A DNA stretch of 45,312 nucleotides, from sequence record OZ035786.1; one strand, 5' to 3'. The DNA comes from Veterinaerplatzvirus T145P1. A program made the position numbers and the translations under genes. The notes under the pieces were generated by a model. It saw only the letters and a list, made by a program, of their open reading frames with translations, made no database searches and was not told the origin of the DNA. Positions 1 through 45,312 of the stretch are shown here, piece after piece; position 1 is the stretch's first letter, and every line of letters starts with the position of its first letter.

Positions 1-29
1 ATAATCTGACCTCAACAAAGGAGGATTAA

Positions 30-536
30 ATGAGCAAAACAGCATTAAAGATGGGTGAGGGAAATTTCAAGGCGCTCTACAACAAGAAGTATGGCGATAT
101 TGCTATGGTGGCAATTAACCGCAAGTACACGCCTGAGGAAGTTTTCGATTTCGCCGTTAGGTACTTCTCATGGGCTGAAAGTACGGCAATCAAGGCCGCT
201 GAGACAGCATCATTTCAGGGCATGGTCACTGAACACCTCATACATAAACCTCGAGTATTCACATTAACCGGGCTGGCGCTCTTCATGGGTGTTAATATCA
301 ATAGGTTCGCTCGCTGGCGTACTGAGGCTGGATACTCTGACGTGATGGAATTCATTGATAACGTAATCTACGAGCAGAAATACCAGCTTGGCGTCGCAGG
401 CATCATCAACTCCACCATCGTTGGTAAAGAGCTTGGCATTGATAAGCCGCAGGAGATTACCATTAGCAACAACTCCACAGCTAACGACGTTGACAGCATG
501 AAGGAAGCGCTGGAATCTGTTATTGGTAAACTATAA
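30..536 (+). CDS. terminase small subunit (putative)
   Basis: 168-aa ORF immediately upstream of the large terminase, SD aaggagga 6 nt before ATG; call is positional, no diagnostic motif seen. Confidence 0.55.
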   Translation: MSKTALKMGEGNFKALYNKKYGDIAMVAINRKYTPEEVFDFAVRYFSWAESTAIKAAETASFQGMVTEHLIHKPRVFTLTGLALFMGVNINRFARWRTEAGYSDVMEFIDNVIYEQKYQLGVAGIINSTIVGKELGIDKPQEITISNNSTANDVDSMKEALESVIGKL

Positions 537-5562: not shown

Positions 5563-5578
5563 TAATTAAGATATATAA

Positions 5579-5601
5579 AGCCTCCTTCGGGAGGTTTTTT
5601 T
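5579..5601 (+). terminator. rho-independent terminator
   Basis: gcctcc-ttcg-ggaggt hairpin followed by T7. Confidence 0.75.
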
Positions 5602-5607
5602 ATACCA

Positions 5608-5635
5608 TTGCGTGGGCTAAAAACTCGTGTATAAT
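5608..5635 (+). promoter_or_regulatory. sigma70-like promoter upstream of major capsid gene
   Basis: TTGCGT, 16-bp spacer, TATAAT (preceded by TG). Confidence 0.5.
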
Positions 5636-6624: not shown

Positions 6625-6646
6625 GCCCTCTTCGGAGGGCTTTTTT
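6625..6646 (+). terminator. rho-independent terminator
   Basis: gccctc-ttcg-gagggc hairpin followed by T6. Confidence 0.75.
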
Positions 6647-6709
6647 ACGTCTGTACCAAATGGATTTGTTGGGTTATAATCACTCAATCAGATAACAAAG
6701 GAGACAAAA

Positions 6710-6955
6710 ATGATTCGTTTAGAACACACTGGCGCTTGCCTTATCGTTTACAGGGGTGAGAAATATTTGCCTGGTGACACTTTCGAGGTTGATGCAATTT
6801 GCGACGGACTCAAGCGTTTAATCGCAGAGGGTAAACTCACCATTGAGGGTGACGCCAAAGCAACCAAACAAATCGCGCAAGAAGTTGTTAGCAAGAAAAA
6901 GCGCAGAGAACCGAAAACCATCTCCGAGGCTGAGACTGGTAACGAGTACAAATAA
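6710..6955 (+). CDS. hypothetical protein (small gene bracketed by two terminators)
   Basis: 81-aa ORF, SD aaggaga, basic C-terminal tail. Confidence 0.5.
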   Translation: MIRLEHTGACLIVYRGEKYLPGDTFEVDAICDGLKRLIAEGKLTIEGDAKATKQIAQEVVSKKKRREPKTISEAETGNEYK

Positions 6956-8196: not shown

Positions 8197-8587
8197 ATTA
8201 TCATTAGCAGCAAGGAAATTCGTCAACGATTTGTTGGTAAATGAATTTCCGGTCAGATATCCAGTTGCGTGGGAGAATGCTGCATTCACCCCTCCTGCGG
8301 ATGGATCAATCTGGCTTAAGTACGACTACACGGAAGTTGATACTGTAACCTACGGATTAAGCAGGAAGTGCAAATACTACGTAGGCATGGTGCAGATTTC
8401 TGTTTTCTTCAGCCCTGGCACTGGAATTGATAGACCCAGACAAATCGCTAATCAATTGGCAGAATCTATCGTTGATGGTACAATGCTTGACAGCGGGACC
8501 ATTTATGAGTCTGGAGTTGTTAACCCGGTTATCAAATCCAAATCTGGGTGGTTTATCCCGGTTCGTTTTTATGTTCGTCTAGACTAA
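8186..8587 (+). CDS. tail terminator-like protein (putative)
   Basis: GTG start 6 nt after SD ggaggagg and just before upstream stop; the track ATG at 8045 would overlap the previous gene by about 150 nt. Confidence 0.4.
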   Translation: MQYELSLAARKFVNDLLVNEFPVRYPVAWENAAFTPPADGSIWLKYDYTEVDTVTYGLSRKCKYYVGMVQISVFFSPGTGIDRPRQIANQLAESIVDGTMLDSGTIYESGVVNPVIKSKSGWFIPVRFYVRLD

Positions 8588-9336: not shown

Positions 9337-9369
9337 TACCTCATCGAAACGAAATGAGAGATTAAAGAA

Positions 9370-14492: not shown

Positions 14493-15251
14493 ATGTTAAC
14501 ACCAAAAGTTAAACTGGAAATCTTCCAGCACGCAAAGGAAGTTTACCCGCATGAGTGCTGTGGAGTTGTTACGCAGAAGGGTCGCGCTCAGAGGTATCAC
14601 AGAATCACCAATGTCAGCAAGGACCCGGAGAATGAGTTTATCCTTGATTCGAATGAGTATGCAGATGTTCTCTTTGAGTTGGCTCACAATGAATCTATTG
14701 TTTACGTAGTTCACTCTCATACGGGTGATGGCGCAACAACAAGGCCTAGCCCAGCGGATATTTGCAGCTGTAATGAATGCGAGGTTCCTTACGTTATTGT
14801 AAGCATCCCAGAGTTGGACATGAGAATCCTTGAGCCATCAACCATGCCTCTGATTGGTCGACCTTGGGGGCTTGGTAGCTTTGATTGCTGGGAGTTGGTA
14901 ATGGCGTTCCACAAGAAATACGGCGTCAAACTGAATGACTACCGAGTTAATTACCCGTGGTGGGAGAAGCGGTACAATGAAAATATCTATGACGACAACT
15001 GGATTAAGGAAGGATTTGAGTTGGTGAAAACTTCAGATATTACTGTTGGCTCAATGATTATGATGCAGGTCCAGAGTGAAGTAACAAACCACGCCGGAAT
15101 CTACATTGGCAACAACAGATTCATTCACCATCTTTATGGTAAAATGAGTTCCATTGATATCTATTCCGATTACTGGCGAGAGCGCACAGTGAGAATCGTT
15201 CGCCATAAGGATTTACCAGAGGATGTAATCTATGACCCAGAAACTGATTGA
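14493..15251 (+). CDS. tail assembly protein (lambda K-like; JAB/MPN plus NlpC/P60 peptidase motifs)
   Basis: HSHTGDG...SPAD JAMM-like motif and DCWELV...H NlpC/P60-like Cys-His; SD aaggggg. Confidence 0.8.
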   Translation: MLTPKVKLEIFQHAKEVYPHECCGVVTQKGRAQRYHRITNVSKDPENEFILDSNEYADVLFELAHNESIVYVVHSHTGDGATTRPSPADICSCNECEVPYVIVSIPELDMRILEPSTMPLIGRPWGLGSFDCWELVMAFHKKYGVKLNDYRVNYPWWEKRYNENIYDDNWIKEGFELVKTSDITVGSMIMMQVQSEVTNHAGIYIGNNRFIHHLYGKMSSIDIYSDYWRERTVRIVRHKDLPEDVIYDPETD

Positions 15252-15833: not shown

Positions 15834-15845
15834 ATTTAGTGTAGA

Positions 15846-18800
15846 ATGGCACAAATGATCAAAACAAACATGAGGCTTTGTGATATGGCTGAAGATATTA
15901 AGATTTATGGTGCTAAGGGTGGTAGCCAGAAGCAGCACCAACCAGTGGAACAAGAAGACAACCTGATTTCATTAAACAAGGTCAAGGTATTACTTGCGGT
16001 TGCTGACGGCGAGGTTGACCCTAACTTCTCAATGAAAGATTTATACCTTGCTGACGTTCCGGTGCAAAACCAGGATGGTAGCTACAACTATGATGGTGTT
16101 CGCGCTGAGTTCCGTGCTGGCACGCAGTATCAGGACTATATCGCCGGGCTTGACGGTGCTAACTCAGAGATTCAGGCATCCAGAGAAATCAAGAACGATA
16201 CCCCGTACATCATTGCGGTTAACAATACTCAGCTTTCAGCAATTCGAGTTAAGCTATTTTGGCCTCGACTGGTTAAGCAAGAAAACAACGGAGACCTGAA
16301 CGGAACAACTTGCGAGTACGCAATTGACCTTTCTGTTAATGGTGGTGCTTACCAGGAATACACTCGCGGAGTTGCTAACGGCAAGACAACTACAGGTTAC
16401 GACCGAAGCATTCGCGTAAACCTTCCGGCAGAGTTTGATAGTGCGCTTGTTCGCATCCGTAAGATTACAGCTGACTCAACGAGCAGCACACTGGTTAACG
16501 GAATGCAGATTACAACCTATCAGGAAGTAATCGACGCCAAATTCCGCTACCCGCTTACGGCTCTGGTCTATGTTGAGTTTGGTTCTGACTTGTTCCCTAA
16601 CGGCATCCCGACAATCTCAATAAAGAAGCGTTGGAAGCTAATTCAGGTACCGACAAACTACGACCCGGAGACAAGGACTTACAGCGGGACATGGAATGGC
16701 TTATTCAAGATGGCATGGTCGAATAACCCGGCATGGGTTCTCTATGACCTGGTGACAAACCGACGCTATGGGCTTGACCAGCGAGAGTTGGGTGTAGAGA
16801 TTGATAAATGGGGCTTGTATGAAGCCGCGCAATTCTGTGACCAGATGGTTCCAGATGGTAAGGGTGGTTTAGAGCCGCGTTACCTTTGCGATATGGTTGT
16901 GCAAAACAAGGTTGAGGCCTACACGCTAATTCGTGATATCTGCTCAATCTTCCGTGGTCTGACTTTCTATGACGGTGAAAAGATTGGTATCGTGGTTGAT
17001 AAGCCTCGCAACCCATCTTACATCTTCACCAATGATAACGTTGTAAACGGATTGTTCAGTCGAACCTTTGCCAGTGATAAAAGCCTTTACACCACGGCAA
17101 ACGTCCAGTTTGATGATGTAGAGAACAACTATCAACAGGATGTTGAGCCGGTATTTGAATTAGAGGCAACTCGTCGTTTTGGATTTAACCCTGTAGATTT
17201 AACTGCGATTGGATGCACTCGCAGAAGTGAAGCAAACAGACGTGGCAGATGGCTCCTGAAAACAAACCTGAGAAGCGAAACTATCAGCTTCACTACTGGG
17301 TTGGAAGGTATGATTCCGATGATTGGCGAGGTAATTGCGGTCAATGACGCTGCATGGTCTAGCAACTATCAGTTAAACCTTTCCGGTCGTATTGAGTCAG
17401 TTCAGGGGTTGCAGGTTTTTACCCCTTTTAAAGTTGACGCAGCGCCTGGTGACAGAATTCTTCTGAACAAGCCAGACGGAAGTCCAGAGGCAAGAACTAT
17501 TGCCAGCGTTTCGGAGGATGGAAGAACAATCAACCTTAACACTGCTTTTAGTTTTGTAGCTCAACCTGACACTGTTTTCGCAATCGATAAGGATAATCTC
17601 GCGCTTCAACAGTATGTTGTGACCGGGATTCAAAAAGCAGATTCTGATGGCTCTGATTCATTCCAGTATACGATTACCGCAGTAGAGTATGACCCGAACA
17701 AGTATGATGAGATTGATTATGGTGTAAACATTGTTGACCGCCCAACATCAATTGTTGAGCCTGATAGATTGTCGCCACCTGAGAACTTAACAGTATCAAG
17801 CTACAGTAAGGTTGTTCAAGGGTTGTCAGTTGAGACGATGGTTATCGGATGGGATAAAGCTCCATACGCTAAAACATACAATGTTCAGTGGAGGAAAGAA
17901 AATGGCAACTGGATTAACGTACCCAGAACGGCAAGTACAGAGGTTGATATCGAAGGTATTTACGCAGGAATCTATGACGTTAGGGTTCGCAGCGTATCAG
18001 ATACTGAAAACGTGTCTGCCTGGTCTGGCATTGTAACCGTATCGCTAACTGGCAAGATTGGTCGCCCATCGGCACCTACTGTTATCACGGCATCAACAGA
18101 TGAGGTATTTGGCATCCGTGTTAAGTGGGGTTTCCCTGAGGGTTCTGGTGACACTGCTTACACTGAACTTCAGCAGGTCCCTGATAATGGTGACGGCACT
18201 TACAATCCTGATAACGCAAGTTTGCTGACGTTACTGCCTTATCCAGCCTATGAATACTGGCACACGCCAATTCAGCCGGGTAAGGTCATCTGGTATCGCG
18301 CAAGATTGATTGACAGAATCGGCAATACCTCTGATTGGTCTTATTTCGCTAGAGGTATGAGTACTGACGACGCCAACATCATCAACGATTATATCAAGGT
18401 TGATATTGAAGGCTCGGAGGGTTTTAAATACCTAGAGCAGAATGCGATTCAAAAGAACCAGGACATTCAGAATCAAGCCGAGGCAATCATCGAGAACGCG
18501 CTGGCTAATGATGGCGATGTTCGTCGCATGACTAAGGAGAACGGCAAGCGTAAGGCTGAATATGTTCAGGCTGTGAATCTCATAGCTGATGAAACTCAGG
18601 CGCGTGTAGAGGCTCTTACGCAGCTTAAAGCGCAGATTGATGATGAGGTTGTTTCATCGATTACAGAAGTTCAGACTGCATTAGCAACAGAGACAGAAGC
18701 AAGAACTACTGCGGATACGGCTCTATCAGCAAGACTTGGTGAAAACGAGGCTGCACTAAACCAGAAGCTGGACGCTTTTTCTAACGCCACATCGACTGGT

Positions 18801-19271
18801 GTACAGTATGGGATTAGTCTTGGCCTGAAATACAACGGACAGACTTATTCATCCGGCATGAGTATGGAGCTTGTTGGCACTGGTGGGAATGTTCGCAGTC
18901 AGTTCATCTTTGACGCAAACAGATTCGCAATCAGTAACGGCATTGGTTCTGGTTCCGGTCAGTGGCAACTCCCATTCGTTGTAGAGAATGGAAACGTAAT
19001 AATCCAAAGCGCAGTAATCGGCGATGGCTCAATTACTAACGCTAAGATTGGTAATATAATTTCATCAAATGATTATGTGGCAGGCTCTCAGGGATGGGCG
19101 ATACTGAAAAGTGGTGCGTCAGAGTTCAATAACACAACTGTAAGGGGCAATCTTTACGCTAACAATGGTAACTTTGCTTTTAACGGAACCAATAACACGG
19201 TTCAGATTAACAATAACGGAATCACTGTAAACTTACCGAACGGAGGAAGAGTGGTAGTTGGAGTGTGGTAA
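15846..19271 (+). CDS. central tail fibre / host specificity protein (lambda J-like)
   Basis: 1141 aa following M-L-K-I; in-frame alternative ATGs at 15870 and 15885 (the latter with a weak SD), so the true start is uncertain. Confidence 0.85.
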   Translation: MAQMIKTNMRLCDMAEDIKIYGAKGGSQKQHQPVEQEDNLISLNKVKVLLAVADGEVDPNFSMKDLYLADVPVQNQDGSYNYDGVRAEFRAGTQYQDYIAGLDGANSEIQASREIKNDTPYIIAVNNTQLSAIRVKLFWPRLVKQENNGDLNGTTCEYAIDLSVNGGAYQEYTRGVANGKTTTGYDRSIRVNLPAEFDSALVRIRKITADSTSSTLVNGMQITTYQEVIDAKFRYPLTALVYVEFGSDLFPNGIPTISIKKRWKLIQVPTNYDPETRTYSGTWNGLFKMAWSNNPAWVLYDLVTNRRYGLDQRELGVEIDKWGLYEAAQFCDQMVPDGKGGLEPRYLCDMVVQNKVEAYTLIRDICSIFRGLTFYDGEKIGIVVDKPRNPSYIFTNDNVVNGLFSRTFASDKSLYTTANVQFDDVENNYQQDVEPVFELEATRRFGFNPVDLTAIGCTRRSEANRRGRWLLKTNLRSETISFTTGLEGMIPMIGEVIAVNDAAWSSNYQLNLSGRIESVQGLQVFTPFKVDAAPGDRILLNKPDGSPEARTIASVSEDGRTINLNTAFSFVAQPDTVFAIDKDNLALQQYVVTGIQKADSDGSDSFQYTITAVEYDPNKYDEIDYGVNIVDRPTSIVEPDRLSPPENLTVSSYSKVVQGLSVETMVIGWDKAPYAKTYNVQWRKENGNWINVPRTASTEVDIEGIYAGIYDVRVRSVSDTENVSAWSGIVTVSLTGKIGRPSAPTVITASTDEVFGIRVKWGFPEGSGDTAYTELQQVPDNGDGTYNPDNASLLTLLPYPAYEYWHTPIQPGKVIWYRARLIDRIGNTSDWSYFARGMSTDDANIINDYIKVDIEGSEGFKYLEQNAIQKNQDIQNQAEAIIENALANDGDVRRMTKENGKRKAEYVQAVNLIADETQARVEALTQLKAQIDDEVVSSITEVQTALATETEARTTADTALSARLGENEAALNQKLDAFSNATSTGVQYGISLGLKYNGQTYSSGMSMELVGTGGNVRSQFIFDANRFAISNGIGSGSGQWQLPFVVENGNVIIQSAVIGDGSITNAKIGNIISSNDYVAGSQGWAILKSGASEFNNTTVRGNLYANNGNFAFNGTNNTVQINNNGITVNLPNGGRVVVGVW

Positions 19272-24074: not shown

Positions 24075-24100
24075 TAAGGCCCCTTTTGGGGCCTTTTTTA
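24075..24100. terminator. bidirectional rho-independent terminator
   Basis: ggcccc-tttt-ggggcc hairpin between ssb (+) and tailspike (-) stops, T-run on both strands. Confidence 0.8.
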
Positions 24101-26683
24101 TTAACCTATTTTAGTGTAAGTCCATTGGTATGTTGCAGCTCCCTTGGCAGTTATCCCGACAGTTCTTCCACTTACATCCATTGAAGTGAAAGCGCCAGTT
24201 TTTGTAATTGTTATTGATGATGTGGAACCATCAAAAAGTACGTCAGCAATTACACTATAGTTAGGTCCAGCACCAGTAACCCAGGTCGAAACCTTGTATA
24301 AACCAGCGTTGTTTGGCAACTCAAAAAGACCAGTTGAAACATTCGCCTGAACAGCCATCGCGCCCTTTCCGGTGTACACACCGTCAGTTTTAAGACCTAA
24401 TGATGAATATGTTTGCTTATAGCCACCAATGATGGCACCACCCATAGGTTCAGTAAACCAGTTCACATTACCCTGACTAACAACAGATATCGCTGGAGAC
24501 CCCCCTTTAGCTGACTGAAACCTACCGCTTAAAATGTCAATTCTAGATGCTGAGTCCTGGGCGTAGATAGTTACAGGATACCCACCAGAACCAGTGTAAA
24601 CCAAGCCGTTATCATTAATGTCATCTTCAGACGAGTCAATGATTACATGGGAAGTTCCAGACGCCTTGATGAACGAAACAACACCGCTAGAACCAGCACC
24701 TGTTGTTCTAACTTCATTCTTCCATGATGTTAGGCCTGAAATTCTGCCATTTGAGTTATTAAACCTAATCAGGCAACAATCTTGCGATCCGTTGGTGTCA
24801 ATAATGTTACCTTCAACGTCCATCCCTAGTATGTTTACGCTATGGCTGTTGATGAAGTTAATCCCAGCACCACCGTAAGAACCAGATGTTGATGATATAT
24901 TACTGGCATCCATTGCGCAGTTAATCATTGTAACGCTCATTACCGAACCAAATTCATAAGGTGAAATGCAATCTGATGCGTAACAAGTCTCAAGCAATAT
25001 TGTCGTTCCTGTCGCCTTTATGAATCCAGTCCTGCAATTCCTGGCCCAAACATTCTGTAGCTTAGTCTGGTATGTTGCAGTGGTGTCCGTGTAGCAACCC
25101 CATGCTCCATGGACTGTGCAATCTTTGATACATGAATTTTCTAGCCCTGTTGCAGAACCAACATTAGAAACGAAGTTAAATGCTATCTTTTGATCATTCC
25201 CTGATGCTGAGGTAGGTGTAGTGCCTGGGTTATAAAAAATGTAAAGTCCCTCAATAAACACTTGATACATTCTTATGTTTTGCGCATCACCCTGAACCAG
25301 GGCGAATAGGTTTATGTTCCCATCAACTGAGATAAATGTTTGCGCCCTGTTAATTTGGTTTGTTCCCTCGCCAATAATTCTTGTACTGTTGCCAATCCTC
25401 ACCGTCCTGTTAATGAACATAAAACCTTTTGGTATGTATACAGTTTTACCGGTATTAACTGCCGCCTGAAGCGCAACTGCGTCAAGTGACTCGTTAAGGT
25501 TTGATGCAAATGGATAAACAAACCGCGCATCCTCAATTGTCGAGAATTTAGATGAAAGAGGAACTAAAGTACCATTGTTTGTAGCACCAAAATCCATGAC
25601 GTTAACAAAGTCACCAAGTTTACTATCCTTACTCCTTTCTACAAATGAGGCCAATGTAGATTTGTAATTCATCGAACTGAATTGTGATTGAGCCTCTGTC
25701 TTTGAATAAACATCTGATCTTGGGTAAACCTCTGATTTTGAATAAACATCAAGCAAACCCCTAGCTCTTTCAGCAGTAGCGCCGCCAACCGACTTCCCGC
25801 CTTCAACCATAATGTATTCGCGTAAGTAGAAGTTTCTTGATCCTTTAGCGCCCGTCATCCTGAGGTGAGTAGCCCTATATGATGAATCAGAATTCAATGC
25901 CGGATATATATCAATCTCATAAGAGCCTTGAGCTCCACTTGTGCCCCTAACACATATAAAAAGCGTAGCGTTGGCTGTAGTGTATGTCGCAGCTAGTGAT
26001 GCTGGAACGTTTGTCATGTTAGATACTACAACTCGATAATTACCACCACTTTTAAATTCAACTTGCTGCCAATCCAATGATGGCATAGCTATTGTCGATG
26101 TGCTTGCGATACCCTCATTGGCTAGAGTAACCAAAGTTGCAGCATCACCAGCGTTGGCAATGACATTAACTGTGTTGTTGTATGCCTCCTGCGCACTACT
26201 TGCGCTTGATTCAGCCTGAGCCTTGCTTGTAGCGGCAGCTTGCTGGCTGGCAGATGCAGCCGATTCGCTTGAAGCCGCATTTGTTTCGCTTGCCTTCGCC
26301 TCATCAACTAATCGTTGTAACTTATCGAAATCAAAATCACCAGATTCAGCCAACTCAACAAGTGACGCAACCTCAGTTTCACGTGACTGATAGTAACGAA
26401 GAGTTTCCGCAACATCCTGAGCTAGCCCCTGAACGGTAATTCCATCATGCGCAAGGATAGCGTAACCAGTTCCAGCAGGAACAGTTTCGGAGTTAGGGTT
26501 GTAAACATTAATCTGCGTATCGCTGATAATTTCTGAGATGGTGTAAATCTGTACTGGTTCAGTTTTAAATACAATGGTTGCACCTACGCGAATCAGTGTA
26601 AGAGGTGCTTTCCATGTTGTCCCGACGCCAGTCACCTCACCACTTGCTGCTAGAGAAGCTGTTCCTGAGTCATAAATTGCCAT
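24101..26683 (-). CDS. tailspike / lateral tail fibre with beta-helix (pectate-lyase-like) depolymerase domain
   Basis: Start moved to Met11 of track ORF (SD ggaga 9 nt upstream; track start is GTG). Ala/Ser/Gln-rich coiled-coil neck, then long Cys/Asn/Gly-rich repeat region typical of right-handed beta-helix tailspikes. Confidence 0.7.
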   Translation of the reverse strand: MAIYDSGTASLAASGEVTGVGTTWKAPLTLIRVGATIVFKTEPVQIYTISEIISDTQINVYNPNSETVPAGTGYAILAHDGITVQGLAQDVAETLRYYQSRETEVASLVELAESGDFDFDKLQRLVDEAKASETNAASSESAASASQQAAATSKAQAESSASSAQEAYNNTVNVIANAGDAATLVTLANEGIASTSTIAMPSLDWQQVEFKSGGNYRVVVSNMTNVPASLAATYTTANATLFICVRGTSGAQGSYEIDIYPALNSDSSYRATHLRMTGAKGSRNFYLREYIMVEGGKSVGGATAERARGLLDVYSKSEVYPRSDVYSKTEAQSQFSSMNYKSTLASFVERSKDSKLGDFVNVMDFGATNNGTLVPLSSKFSTIEDARFVYPFASNLNESLDAVALQAAVNTGKTVYIPKGFMFINRTVRIGNSTRIIGEGTNQINRAQTFISVDGNINLFALVQGDAQNIRMYQVFIEGLYIFYNPGTTPTSASGNDQKIAFNFVSNVGSATGLENSCIKDCTVHGAWGCYTDTTATYQTKLQNVWARNCRTGFIKATGTTILLETCYASDCISPYEFGSVMSVTMINCAMDASNISSTSGSYGGAGINFINSHSVNILGMDVEGNIIDTNGSQDCCLIRFNNSNGRISGLTSWKNEVRTTGAGSSGVVSFIKASGTSHVIIDSSEDDINDNGLVYTGSGGYPVTIYAQDSASRIDILSGRFQSAKGGSPAISVVSQGNVNWFTEPMGGAIIGGYKQTYSSLGLKTDGVYTGKGAMAVQANVSTGLFELPNNAGLYKVSTWVTGAGPNYSVIADVLFDGSTSSITITKTGAFTSMDVSGRTVGITAKGAATYQWTYTKIG

Positions 26684-26706
26684 TGTGTAGAGTCTCCATT
26701 TGTAAA

Positions 26707-26725
26707 ATAGCACGAATTGCTAAAG
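26707..26725. promoter_or_regulatory. orphan copy of the TAGCA-N5-TGCTA palindrome (no TATAGT box downstream)
   Basis: atagcacgaattgctaaag in + orientation between primase terminator and tailspike start, both on minus strand. Confidence 0.5.
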
Positions 26726-26747
26726 TGGATTGTAGCATCTTTGAGTC

Positions 26748-26770
26748 ATAAAAAAACCTCCCGAAGGAGG
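26748..26770 (-). terminator. rho-independent terminator (minus strand)
   Basis: cctcc-cgaa-ggagg hairpin with A8 run on + strand, i.e. U-run after the hairpin on the minus transcript. Confidence 0.7.
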
Positions 26771-27697
26771 TTAGTCTAGTAATTCGCTCGCCTTGTATAT
26801 TCGCTTTCTTATTCCTGATTTGAAGTGGTTATCATTATTTGGCATTACAACATCAAGATTGCGATCGTCAGCAACGGCGAGTAAATCAAAATCGCTGCGA
26901 GTACAAGCGATGCGTAACTTGTAGTTTCTAAGCGCGTAAGCAACCATTTCCATGTTGTAACTGGAGTGGCAAACAAGCACACAGCGGTTCCCAGTAGCAA
27001 TGTGAACGCGATAGCCATCAATGAAATTATCGACCAGATAAGCGTACTCATCATCCTTAAAGGAACCAATAACAGAAACAGACTGGCGAGAATAATCTTT
27101 TGCAGCATAACTAACATCTCCCTCCTCATTGATAAACATTACATTGCACATCTCTTCTGATATGCCGTCACTATAAGCCATAAAGCACGGAACTGCGTGG
27201 ATTAATTCACCTGATTTCGTCCTGCCAACATCAAAACCGAACTCGCTATAGATACCCTCGTATGTACTGAGAGGAGTTGATTCTACTCTTTCCGTCCTTT
27301 CCATTATCTCTAAGCATCTTTCGTGATCAATCTGAGCGCCCATTTTGTATGGTGATGTTCTTGAAGCTCTTTTGTTTGCTTTTGATATAACCTCTACTGG
27401 AACGAGATTCAGCCAATCACCAAGCGTATCTATTGTTTCACTATAACTCATTCCAGAACACTTCATTACCCAACCAACACCAGAATCATTTCCACACTGG
27501 TTGCATATTGCTGCGCCATTTCCCTTTTCTTGACCTAACTCATCAGTGAAGCGAAACCTATCCTTGCCAAAGCAGTAAGGGCACGGACCATGTTTCTTGC
27601 TGAGATTCTCCTTTGTCCATCCAAGATGCGATGAGTAGAACTCACTCCACATCCCTTTCATCTTGGCTATCACTTCGTTCTTATCATGGTGACTCAT
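26771..27697 (-). CDS. DNA primase (zinc-ribbon plus TOPRIM-like)
   Basis: Start moved to Met10 (SD ggaggt 4 nt upstream). CPYC...CNQC zinc-binding pair; acidic AVADDRNLD TOPRIM-like motif. Confidence 0.55.
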   Translation of the reverse strand: MSHHDKNEVIAKMKGMWSEFYSSHLGWTKENLSKKHGPCPYCFGKDRFRFTDELGQEKGNGAAICNQCGNDSGVGWVMKCSGMSYSETIDTLGDWLNLVPVEVISKANKRASRTSPYKMGAQIDHERCLEIMERTERVESTPLSTYEGIYSEFGFDVGRTKSGELIHAVPCFMAYSDGISEEMCNVMFINEEGDVSYAAKDYSRQSVSVIGSFKDDEYAYLVDNFIDGYRVHIATGNRCVLVCHSSYNMEMVAYALRNYKLRIACTRSDFDLLAVADDRNLDVVMPNNDNHFKSGIRKRIYKASELLD

Positions 27698-27752
27698 AAT
27701 TACCTCCATAAACAATAAAGGCACTATACATAATGCAAAGTGCCATTGTTTA

Positions 27753-28232
27753 TCAAATCGTGCTGTTTTGCTCTTTCTTCTTTTGGTTCTCTAATTTTAT
27801 CTTGCGCCATGAACGACACTCTGGCTTAGTGGCTAATTCAGCCTCAGTGACGACTCGCAGCATATGGCGCTTTTTGCACCGAAGTGTCAGCGGTTTCCCG
27901 TTGCCGTCGAATTGCAGGTCTGGTCGGCAGAATGTAGCGCGAAAACCTTCTCCATTTCGCTTATAGTAGTTGTGAGAAAGTTGAGCCCCACGCGCAGAAA
28001 TCATACCGCGCTTAAACCATTCTTCTACAGCCTGTGGTGTTACCTTTAACTGCTTTGCGATATTCGCCTTTGTGCCGAAGAAATCAAGAACTATCTCTAG
28101 CCGCGCGCGTAGCCCGGCTCTTACTTCATCTTTTAAAACATAGTAGCCTGAAGGTCGTTTACGTTGCTTTTTGTCTTCGGTGCGGATGGTTCCGTTATTG
28201 CCGTTAATTGTTCGCTTGTCGACTGTATTCAT
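27753..28232 (-). CDS. HTH DNA-binding protein (Cro/YdaS-like)
   Basis: Helix-turn-helix-like segment TKANIAKQLKVTPQAVEEWFKRG; basic termini; its SD overlaps a palindrome copy. Confidence 0.5.
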   Translation of the reverse strand: MNTVDKRTINGNNGTIRTEDKKQRKRPSGYYVLKDEVRAGLRARLEIVLDFFGTKANIAKQLKVTPQAVEEWFKRGMISARGAQLSHNYYKRNGEGFRATFCRPDLQFDGNGKPLTLRCKKRHMLRVVTEAELATKPECRSWRKIKLENQKKKEQNSTI

Positions 28233-28244
28233 TTCATTACCTCA

Positions 28245-28287
28245 ATAGCATTTTTTGTTAAAAGTCATCCTGATTTGATGGTATCAT
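28245..28287 (+). promoter_or_regulatory. phage promoter family variant upstream of helicase, overlapping the SD of the divergent HTH gene
   Basis: atagcattttttgttaaaa, then tatcat about 21 bp downstream. Confidence 0.45.
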
Positions 28288-28333
28288 TGTACTCAATTAA
28301 ACGCTACAAGACAATTTTTATAGGAATTTAGAT

Positions 28334-30328: not shown

Positions 30329-30744
30329 AGATTACAGATAAAGAAGATTACATTGAGTTTTACCCGGGTCCGGTTAAGTCATGCCCTAAAGAGGATGACG
30401 AACAAATCTTTTGCTCTGATTGGGTTAAGTATAACTACCCAGATATGGTATTTTTCCATTGCGTGAATGAGGGAAAGAAAACCATTGGTCAAGCAAGAAA
30501 AGACCAGGCTAAGGGGCTTCTAAAAGGCGTATCAGACTGTATGTTTCTTATTCCTGAATCACTTCGAGGTAAGTATCCTTTCGGAGCTATAGAGCTAAAG
30601 AGGGCTGGCAAAACTCAAGCAAGTCCAGTCAGCGAAGAACAGAAAGCATTCCTGAAAAGTGTAATGGAATCAGGCGGTTTCTCGGCAGTCGCCTACGGAC
30701 GTGAGGGTTTTCTTGCAGCATTCAAAGAAATGATTTCAAAATAG
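30325..30744 (+). CDS. VRR-NUC domain nuclease (putative)
   Basis: ATG overlaps helicase stop (ATGA); GVSDCMFL...GAIELKRAGK resembles the D...E-x-K core of VRR-NUC. Confidence 0.5.
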   Translation: MKITDKEDYIEFYPGPVKSCPKEDDEQIFCSDWVKYNYPDMVFFHCVNEGKKTIGQARKDQAKGLLKGVSDCMFLIPESLRGKYPFGAIELKRAGKTQASPVSEEQKAFLKSVMESGGFSAVAYGREGFLAAFKEMISK

Positions 30745-30784
30745 CACGAATTGCTAAAGGCGATTTTAAAAGATGGGGTATAGT
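30741..30784 (+). promoter_or_regulatory. phage promoter family copy
   Basis: atagcacgaattgctaaa with TAG stop inside, 22 bp, tatagtta, ccatcgaaacgaaa leader. Confidence 0.6.
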
Positions 30785-30820
30785 TACTCCATCGAAACGA
30801 AACACAAAGAGAGAAATAAA

Positions 30821-32563: not shown

Positions 32564-33694
32564 ATGGCAACAGCAAAAATCACCAACGAACAATTGCGCG
32601 AAGAGTTAGCAAACGGCATGACCAACAAGGCAATCGCAGAGAAGTACGGAATGAACATTCGCAACGTTGAATTGCGTCGCAGTAAATTAGCTAAACAAGG
32701 CGAAGGGCATGGTCGCGATGTAAGCAACTTAATCCCTCAGGGCTATGCAGTTAAAGGCGTCTCCAGCTTAATTGGTGCTGATGGCGAGATTAAGCAACAG
32801 TGGGTTAAATCAGATATCGACAAGGAGAAGCAAGAAGAGATGATGCTTCAGGCAATTCAGGCCCTAACTGATGAGTTGCCGCGTGAGAAAGCTAAAGCTT
32901 TAAGGGTTGGTTTATGGGAAGATACTTTAAGCCTTTACCCCGTGTTCGACCTCCACATTGGAGCAATGGCTCATCATGCTGAGTGTGGTGAGAACTATAG
33001 TACTGAAATCGCTGAGAGAGTTCTTAATGATTACTTTGATTACGCGGTTGCAAAGGCCCCCAACTCCAAGAAAGCTGTATTGCTGATTGGGGGTGACTTC
33101 CTTCACTCTGACGGAATGGAAGCGGTAACACCAACCAGTTGTCATGTTCTTGATCAAGATAGCCGTTATCACAAACTTGTTTACGTAGCAGTGCGATCGA
33201 CACGTCGAGCAATTAGCCGCATGCTTGATAAGCACGCCGAGGTTGAGGTTCAGATTATTCCAGGTAACCACGATCTCTCAGGTATGATTTGGCTTCGTGC
33301 TGCAATGGCAGCTTTCTATATGGATGAGCCTCGAGTTAATGTTGATGCGTCCCCCGCTGCGCTTCACGTAACGCAATTTGGGAAGACGCTGCTTGGTTAC
33401 TGCCATGGGCACGAACTCAAAAAGCCTGATACCCGACTATCAGCACTGGCTCGTGACCATCGCAAAGCATTTGGTGAATCAGAGTATGTTTACACCCATT
33501 CAGGCCACTATCACCATCAAACTATTACGGAAGGAAATCTGGGTATTGATGAATCACACGGCCAGCTTGGAGCGAAAGATGCGTACAGTGCTAACGGAGG
33601 TTATCGCTCTTACCGACAGGCTTCGGTGATAATTTATAGTCCTGAGTTTGGTGAGATTGGACGATTTACTTGCCGCCCGGAAATGTTTAGTTAA
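32564..33694 (+). CDS. HTH domain fused to calcineurin-like metallophosphoesterase
   Basis: N-terminal HTH-like TNKAIAEKYGMNIRNVELRRSKL; phosphoesterase motifs DLH, GGDFLH, GNHD, CHGHE, HSGHYHH in order. Confidence 0.6.
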   Translation: MATAKITNEQLREELANGMTNKAIAEKYGMNIRNVELRRSKLAKQGEGHGRDVSNLIPQGYAVKGVSSLIGADGEIKQQWVKSDIDKEKQEEMMLQAIQALTDELPREKAKALRVGLWEDTLSLYPVFDLHIGAMAHHAECGENYSTEIAERVLNDYFDYAVAKAPNSKKAVLLIGGDFLHSDGMEAVTPTSCHVLDQDSRYHKLVYVAVRSTRRAISRMLDKHAEVEVQIIPGNHDLSGMIWLRAAMAAFYMDEPRVNVDASPAALHVTQFGKTLLGYCHGHELKKPDTRLSALARDHRKAFGESEYVYTHSGHYHHQTITEGNLGIDESHGQLGAKDAYSANGGYRSYRQASVIIYSPEFGEIGRFTCRPEMFS

Positions 33695-34788: not shown

Positions 34789-35153
34789 TAATGTGCGTAG
34801 CTTTATCTGGATGTTCGGCAACTGATGCACTGACTGGATTGATTGGAAGCAAGCCGGAAGTTACAGCTCAGGTCGGGGCTGAGAACAACAAGGTTGGCGT
34901 TGGGTTAACGAATAAGGTCGATTCCAGCAGCTCCAGTGAAGCCACGGTTAAAGATTCTAAAGTTGGGTCACTTGATAGCTCAAGCGGGAAAAAGACTGCT
35001 GACAACTCGATTAAGGCATCTACAATCACTGCCGAAAAGATTGAGATTACCAACAACGACTCATCCGCGCCTCCATGGATTGTAATGGGAGCTATGGGGT
35101 TGCTGTTTTTTGTTCCACTTACCGCAATCTTAAGACGCAAAAAAGCCTCCTAA
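34764..35153 (+). CDS. unimolecular spanin (lipoprotein signal plus C-terminal transmembrane helix)
   Basis: Lipobox ALSGCS at N-terminus, Ser-rich linker, C-terminal WIVMGAMGLLFFVPLTAIL then RRKK; overlaps endolysin end. Confidence 0.65.
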   Translation: MFKRIAALVMCVALSGCSATDALTGLIGSKPEVTAQVGAENNKVGVGLTNKVDSSSSSEATVKDSKVGSLDSSSGKKTADNSIKASTITAEKIEITNNDSSAPPWIVMGAMGLLFFVPLTAILRRKKAS

Positions 35154-45273: not shown

Positions 45274-45297
45274 AGCCCTCGCTTGAGGGCTTTTTTT
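45274..45297 (+). terminator. rho-independent terminator
   Basis: agccctc-gctt-gagggct hairpin followed by T7. Confidence 0.8.
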
Positions 45298-45312
45298 CGT
45301 CTGCAATATGGT

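Follow-up and report, generated by a model that had tools for sequence, protein, structure and literature searches.

Why should a phage keep a perfect copy of a promoter-associated repeat where it has no downstream promoter and faces the wrong way? The question arises in the gap before the tail-fibre gene of Veterinaerplatzvirus T145P1 (OZ035786.1), the whole 45,312-nucleotide stretch of which was analysed and is called the window below. T1-like phages (Drexlerviridae) are common, are used in therapy and are notorious laboratory contaminants. To our knowledge, the control of transcription in these phages is essentially unstudied, and no start-site, binding or time-course transcriptome data for Drexlerviridae were found in the searchable literature. 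The re-annotation of phage TLS described 21 copies of aaATAGCACnnnTTGnTAAAA, oriented with transcription and lying about 76 nt before start codons, and noted the repeat also in T1, Rtp and Rogue1; stoperators, enhancer sites or UP elements were offered as roles, and the function was left open (PMC11447400). The other papers of the literature searched made no mention of the motif. The repeat family is therefore already published, and what is new here is a context, namely an inverted copy lying on the predicted start of the tail-fibre promoter, P_stf.

The 4.4 kb around this copy are 86–93% identical, over their conserved part, to Rtp-like coliphages (Drexlerviridae, T1-like). In annotated relatives the local order is SSB (plus strand), tail fibre or tail spike (minus), primase (minus), transcriptional regulator (minus) and helicase (plus); the corresponding features are collected in Table 1. 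Orthologues of the tail-fibre gene are annotated as lateral tail fibre or tail spike. The relatives keep its N-terminus, MAIYD, and past the N-terminal ~100 codons these genes are mosaic, 46% of the 4.4-kb query being covered in most relatives. The primase gene ends in an intrinsic terminator that overlaps its stop codon (26773..26771) and is kept in all relatives. The repeat copy lies 30 nt beyond that terminator, between two co-directional units, and on the minus strand the whole gap reads GGGAGG-T7-ATGACTCAAAGA-TGCTACAAT-CCA-CTTTAGCAATTCGTGCTAT-TTTACAAAT-GGAG-ACTCTACACA-ATG. Between the convergent SSB and tail-fibre genes there is a G+C-rich hairpin (24076-24095), flanked by T-runs on the plus strand, which probably terminates both genes.

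Table 1. Positions in the window of the repeat copy, the neighbouring genes and the promoters discussed in the text
Feature	Position	Strand	Remarks
19-mer ATAGCACGAATTGCTAAAG (= atagcacgaattgctaaag)	26707-26725	+	Drexlerviridae promoter-associated repeat; inverted relative to the tail-fibre gene
Palindromic core TAGCA-CGAAT-TGCTA	26708-26722		5+5 inverted repeat, TAGCA-N5-TGCTA; centre 26715
Extended -10 of P_stf, TGCTACAAT	26737..26729	-	Tail-fibre promoter, read from sequence; 3 nt from the 19-mer
Tail-fibre RBS (GGAG) and ATG	26697..26694; 26683..26681	-	Read from sequence
Tail-fibre/tailspike gene	24101-26683	-	860 aa; weak pectate-lyase-like Pfam match; presumed controlled gene
Primase ORF	26771-27724	-	Pfam Zn-ribbon, 7e-12
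Primase intrinsic terminator	26772..26755; T-run 26754..26748	-	Stem AACCTCC-TTCG-GGAGGTT
Primase promoter AACAGCACGATTTGATAAAC	27767..27723	-	19 nt, TATAGT; inside the 3' end (last codons) of the regulator gene
"Transcriptional regulator" gene	27753-28232	-	159 aa; PHROG 2856 (phrog_2856); weak Pfam P22_Cro/YdaS HTH; candidate binder
Regulator promoter TTGTCT-N17-TACAAT	28314..28286	-	Host-type
Helicase-promoter element	28245-28263; -10 28282-28287	+	N18, TATCAT
terS cassette TGGTATAAT	45275-45312 joined to 1-30		Across the window ends; no repeat
Major capsid cassette TTGCGT-N16-TATAAT	5608-5635 (region 5575-5635)		No repeat
Gene-6710 cassette, TATAAT	6625-6700		No repeat

The copy is an exceptionally good member of its family. 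A search with the 19-mer gave 13 matches at three mismatches or fewer in the window, against 0.00 expected from 100 shuffles. When the window was scanned with a position weight matrix (PWM) built from 14 promoter-linked copies, with the best shuffle score as the threshold, about 19 copies scored above the shuffle maximum. Taken with the two A's that precede it (26705-26725), the copy before the tail-fibre gene forms the 21-mer AAATAGCACGAATTGCTAAAG, which matches the family consensus at 21 of 21 positions, is identical to the copy at 30739-30759 and ties for the top PWM score (34.3).

What the element does elsewhere in the genome can be read from its surroundings. The downstream context was compiled for the 14 canonical copies and for the primase-promoter copy, which the three-mismatch search had missed and the PWM scan recovered; the PWM copies at 33692, 40737 and 42044 lie outside this compilation. 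A TAnnnT hexamer stands 18–20 nt 3' of every one of these copies, and in the 14 canonical copies it agrees with TATAAT at five or more of six positions and is mostly TATAGT. The distance from element to -10 is 19 nt in 21 of 28 copies from the window and T1 together (10 of 14 in the window), and 18–20 nt in 27 of them, the one exception being a T1 copy at 22. A 19-nt gap puts the centre of the palindrome near -42. No -35 hexamer is found at 16–18 nt in the canonical copies, where TTGCTA sits 22 nt from the hexamer, and a correctly placed TG is present in six of the 14. The strictness of the spacing indicates that the element forms part of the promoter, its geometry being that of a class II activator site, and since there is no properly spaced -35 and TG occurs in only some copies, these promoters should be inactive without a positive factor. 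Their order is element, TAnnnT, conserved leader, RBS and ATG, and they serve the portal block (2116), the tail-assembly block (9293), the recombination genes (22880), the primase, the helicase (28245) and many small genes.

The leader that follows the -10 has the form TATAGTTAC-yC-CATCGAAACGAAA at 9337-9358 and 30785-30806 and downstream of 38017 (minus) and 43083 (plus). A looser version, CAyCaAmAACGA, follows other canonical copies, and a leader is seen in T1 too.

Two other classes of promoter sequence were considered for the element and rejected. UP elements, bound by alpha-CTD, consist of an A/T tract between -40 and -60 and conserve no G/C, whereas G/C is invariant here in AGCAC and TTG. 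A sigma-54 promoter (TGGCAC-N5-TTGCW) has GG and GC motifs exactly 10 bp apart; the site reads TAGCAC-GAA-TTGCT, with AG in place of GG and a spacing 2 bp short, and the canonical copies instead keep a sigma-70 -10 19 nt downstream.

Set against this pattern, the copy before the tail-fibre gene is anomalous, and alone among the copies examined it is linked to no -10 box in its own orientation. It lies on the plus strand and both neighbouring genes on the minus strand, so that it does not point in the direction of transcription. No plus-strand gene follows it, and the closest ATG, at 24 nt rather than about 76 nt, is on the opposite strand. At 19–21 nt downstream on the plus strand there are only GTCATA, TCATAA and CATAAA, none of which combines A at position 2 with T at position 6, and the conserved leader CATCGAAACGAAA is absent. 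The initial annotation had recorded a palindromic copy on the plus strand between minus-strand genes, located between the primase terminator and the tailspike start codon and lacking a -10 box in its own orientation. Direct reading bears out all three statements, no TAnnnT being present at 18–20 nt. The copy was also called an orphan, and this is apt in so far as no promoter lies downstream of it; it is neither isolated nor decaying, however, being a perfect consensus that is kept in orthologues across genera.

A minus-strand promoter beside the palindrome had been missed. The sequence TGCTACAAT fits an extended -10 for sigma-70, TGnTAnnnT, with the TG one base upstream of the hexamer. There is no -35, and the T-run of the primase terminator occupies its position. 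Transcription is predicted to start near 26722-26720, which makes the palindrome approximately +1 to +15 of the predicted transcript, with its centre at about +8, and the whole 19-mer about -3 to +16. The predicted 5' UTR is only ~40 nt and starts inside the element. A palindrome that serves as a start-site operator should overlap the region from -10 to +20 of a promoter, and relative to the predicted start the one at 26708-26722 does so. That a conserved promoter is predicted at this point argues against transcription of the tail fibre by read-through alone.

Two further ways of deriving a minus-strand promoter from the element were rejected. If the palindrome acted from the canonical distance, the candidate hexamers CACAAT, CATAAT and TATTAT, 25–29 nt from its centre, would overlap the ATG and transcription would start inside the coding region. 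The hexamer TGCTATTTT inside the inverted element does not keep its last T in other genera (TATTTA, TAAACA, TATTAA).

The window contains four cassettes that consist of a terminator and a host-type -10, before terS, the major capsid gene, the gene at 6710 and the tail fibre, and only in the last of these does the element come next. Spacing (T7, 12 nt, TGnTAnAAT) is the same in the cassettes of terS and the tail fibre, which in T1 and Rtp have ATGCCTG in common too. The sequence GTGTAGAAT (15839-15847) was considered as a host-type promoter for the J-like gene and rejected, as it overlaps the ATG of that gene.

Comparison with orthologous loci indicates that the promoter and the element belong together. 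An unbiased set was assembled from the primase terminator to the tail-fibre ATG, using only the T-run and the ATG as anchors, and consisted of 25 loci and the window. In 20 of these 26 sequences TGnTAnnAT is followed after 3–4 nt by the inverted 19-mer. The carriers include Rtp, JeanPiccard, SU57, MM01, ETEP102, phiA2-1, Nouzillyvirus p111, Vilniusvirus NBD2, LF82-11 and a metagenomic contig. A wider set comprises 35 distinct contexts in total, from T1, Rtp, Nouzillyvirus, Vilniusvirus and others; to this set a gapped-pattern scan of IMG/VR contributed 26 real cases, beside which it returned 74 unrelated matches, apparently in conserved coding sequences of other phages. The recurring layout is terminator, TGnTAnnAT, variable spacer, inverted element, RBS and ATG. 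T1 itself has TTGCAA-N17-TGATAAAAT, 4 nt and then the inverted 19-mer. The element is missing at the locus in TLS, in Rogunavirus AHS24 and its close relatives, and in damhaus, all of which retain a host-type promoter (TTGCAT-N17-CATAAT, TGATACAAT and TGCTATTAT, respectively).

Among the orthologues the TG, T-12, A-11, T-7 and the core of the element are invariant, as is A-9 in the column profile, while positions -13, -10 and -8, the 5' UTR and the discriminator (CCAC, TGAT, GCGC, CTGTGC and others) vary. The element is kept where the flanks have diverged to ~75% identity. Retention of the -10 bases and the element core at a fixed distance, while spacer and flanks drift, points to two functional elements rather than to general similarity, although the orthologues share one ancestor, which lessens the weight of the conserved orientation. 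Within the element, orthologues differ in the centre and in the n of TTGnTAA (TTGATAA, TTGTTAA, TTGGTAA), which are the positions left free in the canonical logo. The half-sites are unequal, ATAGCAC being strict and TTGnTAA looser. Some genera, represented by two loci, have a longer perfect palindrome, TTTAGCA-N5-TGCTAAA, as would suit a dimeric binder. An A occupies position 18 of the 19-mer in 25 of 28 canonical promoters, but among the orphan variants in 12 of 20 (Fisher p = 0.03, a test weakened by shared ancestry), and the orphan thus appears to keep the binding core and not the promoter-proximal flank.

The centres of the distinct orphan variants are GAA, TAA, GAT, AAT, ATT or TAT. A TTT centre (ATAGCACTTTTTG...) occurs in none of the 20, in about 4 of 14 canonical copies in the window and in 9 of 14 in T1; its lack among the orphans could reflect affinity classes or simply common descent.

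T1 offers some further observations. It has non-canonical copies in the regions 8350-8400, 25000-25045, 15060-15090, 18830-18850 and 100-120. One copy overlaps the extended -10 of the terS promoter, and another falls within the 5' UTR of the J-like tail gene. Copies in inverted orientation precede the major head gene and follow the major tail gene; for the one after the tail gene, TAAGAT is found on the antisense strand, 19 nt downstream. One further copy lies near the left end. The late region of T1 has no canonical copies, compared with two in the window (2116, 9293). The annotated T1 ORF ST25 (34791-34934) spans the tail-fibre promoter, the operator-like site and the RBS region, and is probably not a gene.

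From these features a role for the orphan can be proposed. If the element at -42 stands in a class II activator position, the same site placed over a start point should repress. We give about even odds, from the arrangement of the sequence, to the view that we think likeliest, namely that the orphan is an operator-type copy of the repeat, lying over the start of the sigma-70 promoter of the tail-fibre gene and holding its transcription down. A sequence-specific, probably dimeric, protein would bind the element; it would activate the canonical promoters from -42, and at about +8 it would compete with RNA polymerase at P_stf, so that tail-fibre transcription would be lowered or timed. Repression could result in early-only expression, in constant throttling to a low stoichiometry or in dosage compensation during genome replication, and late release as replicated genomes titrate the protein is a further option. 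Control of tailspike transcription had been put forward in the initial annotation as an example of what the site might do. The comparative evidence, with its conserved minus-strand promoter 3 nt from the 19-mer, does point there; the binding of a protein and the negative sign of the effect are what we infer.

Cro-type dimers bind short palindromes. The likeliest binder would be the phage's own Cro-like HTH regulator, which is encoded ~1 kb upstream of the tail-fibre site. Proteins of its family combine a basic N-terminal arm, which is strongly conserved, with an HTH and a C-terminal domain that is conserved too. The AF2 model (pLDDT 89) has a helical core resembling the all-alpha Cro proteins of Xfaso-1, N15 and P22, which were the best PDB fold matches in foldseek (probability 0.72–1.0, E 0.06–1.9, TM on target 0.64–0.72). 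The family (824 phage records, 113 protein clusters) is confined to enterobacterial Drexlerviridae, all of which have the same element, and gene and element occur together in T1, TLS, AHS24, damhaus and Klebsiella phages. Vibrio phage K168 was rejected as a source of covariation between regulator and site, being an unrelated myovirus with the primase homologue alone in common.

The regulator's own control region has a related arrangement. Its promoter diverges from that of the helicase, and their -10 boxes overlap by 2 bp. The helicase element sits in the 5' UTR of the regulator and abuts its RBS in every subfamily checked, and the divergent overlap is kept in T1, TLS, AHS24, damhaus and a Klebsiella phage. 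In the region 28245-28314, as at the tail fibre, a host-type promoter thus has the element downstream of it, and the region looks like an autoregulatory switch. The regulator's host-type promoter is probably shut off in a similar way, since the element-dependent helicase promoter overlaps it. Host polymerase would make the regulator first, and the regulator would then turn the element promoters on and its own promoter off.

In T1, copies of the element occur at or just after the host-type -10 of terS, where the copy is forward and overlaps TGGTAAAAT, and of the J-like gene. The tail fibre is therefore not alone in having the element at its start point, and either orientation works. This leads to a more general proposal, which we hold only tentatively and regard as more doubtful than the operator itself: one Cro-like protein and one 19-bp site might run the whole of T1-family transcription, turning ~18 otherwise dead promoters on from -42 and host-type promoters off from their start points (the tail fibre in most genera, the regulator's own gene in all, terS and the J-like gene in T1). 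If so, what is visible in the orphan would be the repressor arm of an undescribed genome-wide switch in a classical family of coliphages.

Several facts sit uneasily with the operator reading. Unequal conservation of the half-sites is not what a simple symmetric dimer predicts. It is biologically awkward that one factor should activate other structural operons (2116, 9293) while it represses the tail fibre. Three lineages, TLS, Rogunavirus AHS24 and damhaus, manage without the site, and in the present phage the host-type promoters of terS, the major capsid gene and the gene at 6710 do so as well.

The location would also suit a roadblock or insulator, in which the bound protein stops polymerases that escape the primase terminator or separates two co-directional units, 30 nt past that terminator, and initiation at P_stf would not be its main target. 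A stoperator-like role was among those proposed for the repeat family by the TLS authors (PMC11447400). Such a device, however, has no need for a fixed distance of 3–4 nt to a conserved -10, and the primase terminator is strong, with a 7-bp G+C-rich stem and T7. We consider it unlikely, and since initiation would not proceed anyway with a protein sitting on +1 to +15, it overlaps with the operator reading and does not replace it.

The binder might alternatively be a host protein, either Lrp or RNA polymerase itself, with the site still acting at the tail-fibre start in a host-driven circuit. Nearly all transcription units, including those of small early genes, use the element, which is easier to understand with a factor present at time zero. 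The arms of the Lrp consensus, yAGhAwATTwTdCTr (as quoted in PMC5554404), match TAGCA...TGCTA, and five copies of the element match it at two mismatches. But the window contains nine sites with two or fewer mismatches where 12.3 are expected, so there is no enrichment; the orphan has four mismatches in the centre, and copies of the GAA-centre class, to which it belongs, depart from the A/T-rich centre of the consensus. Invariant G/C positions argue against an UP element bound by the alpha subunit, and the regulator gene has an ordinary host-type promoter and can therefore be made first. A host-driven circuit is accordingly rated low, on a par with the roadblock.

The predicted start places the palindrome at the extreme 5' end of the tail-fibre mRNA, where a UAGCA-N5-UGCUA hairpin could stabilise the transcript or modulate translation. 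The isolated 23-mer does fold (-3.8 kcal/mol, z = -2.4). In the minimum-energy fold of the 5' UTR the hairpin is not formed, though, and with z = +0.6 the UTR is no more stably folded than shuffled sequence; Rfam gave no match. Furthermore, the central pair is broken without compensation in three lineages, by TTATCAA (two loci), TTAACAA and TTACCAA, and the pair-breaking changes in TTGnTAA are ones that the DNA family logo allows. An element acting in RNA is improbable on these grounds.

Conservation of the full asymmetric 21-mer in the plus orientation could be taken to mean that it serves a plus-strand promoter after all, giving an RNA antisense to the 3' end of primase or occluding the tail-fibre promoter. 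Occlusion has a precedent in CRP at the crp gene. Some relatives do have TATAAA 21 nt downstream, but the hexamers found there (CATAAA, TATAAA, CAATAA, CACAAA) are simply the terminator T-run read on the other strand, always without a T at -7, and lie at 21 nt rather than 18–20; T1-type phages have nothing at that distance (TACCTG), and the leader of the canonical promoters is missing. A divergent promoter is very unlikely, and the suggestion in the initial annotation that the palindrome could be a binding site for either strand is not supported, as no usable plus-strand -10 is conserved. Least probable of all is the absence of any regulatory role, the site being left over from a lost promoter or serving as a short patch of homology for the exchange of tail-fibre modules, for while the mosaic tail-fibre genes and the three lineages without the site could be cited in favour, the copy is a perfect consensus that outlasts its diverged flanks and whose substitutions track the functional logo, and 19 bp is too short for efficient homologous exchange.

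The operator reading predicts that an identical 19 bp is positive at -42 and negative at +8. It bears on how expression of the tail fibre, which determines host range, is set. When tail fibres are swapped by engineering, the promoter-operator cassette would travel with the conserved N-terminal anchor.

The orphan belongs to the same sequence family as the repeats of TLS and equals their consensus; like them it is intergenic, in a phage without an RNA polymerase or sigma gene of its own. It differs in being inverted, 24 nt from an ATG, without its own -10 and on a start point, and TLS lacks this copy. The stoperators of mycobacteriophage L5 (cited in PMC11447400) are asymmetric sites that act only in a single orientation with respect to transcription, and their effect is purely negative. 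Many copies of one short site in the intergenic gaps of a phage genome are common to both systems; most copies here differ in having a strict promoter geometry, and the orphan is inverted.

Other parallels are found among activators and repressors of bacteria and phages. The galP1 promoter is a class II activator-dependent extended -10 promoter with CRP at -41.5. The canonical copies, not the orphan, resemble it in having a palindrome near -42, a good -10, no -35 and sometimes TG; in contrast, the half-sites of the repeat are unequally conserved, and the factor here is only a candidate. The lac operator lacO1 is centred at +11, and the orphan is likewise a short palindrome covering about +1 to +15 of a predicted sigma-70 start, with the difference that its sequence appears to serve as a positive element elsewhere in the genome. 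The lambda cI protein at OR2 activates PRM from about -42 and represses PR, and p4 of phi29 is another regulator with a dual role. The present system differs in having ~18 activator-type sites across a virulent genome, not one tripartite operator, and no lysogeny, and its activation and binding are predicted. The likeness proposed here is that of one HTH protein and one type of site, which would activate from -42 and repress where it overlaps the core promoter, with the gene for the regulator lying within the switch.
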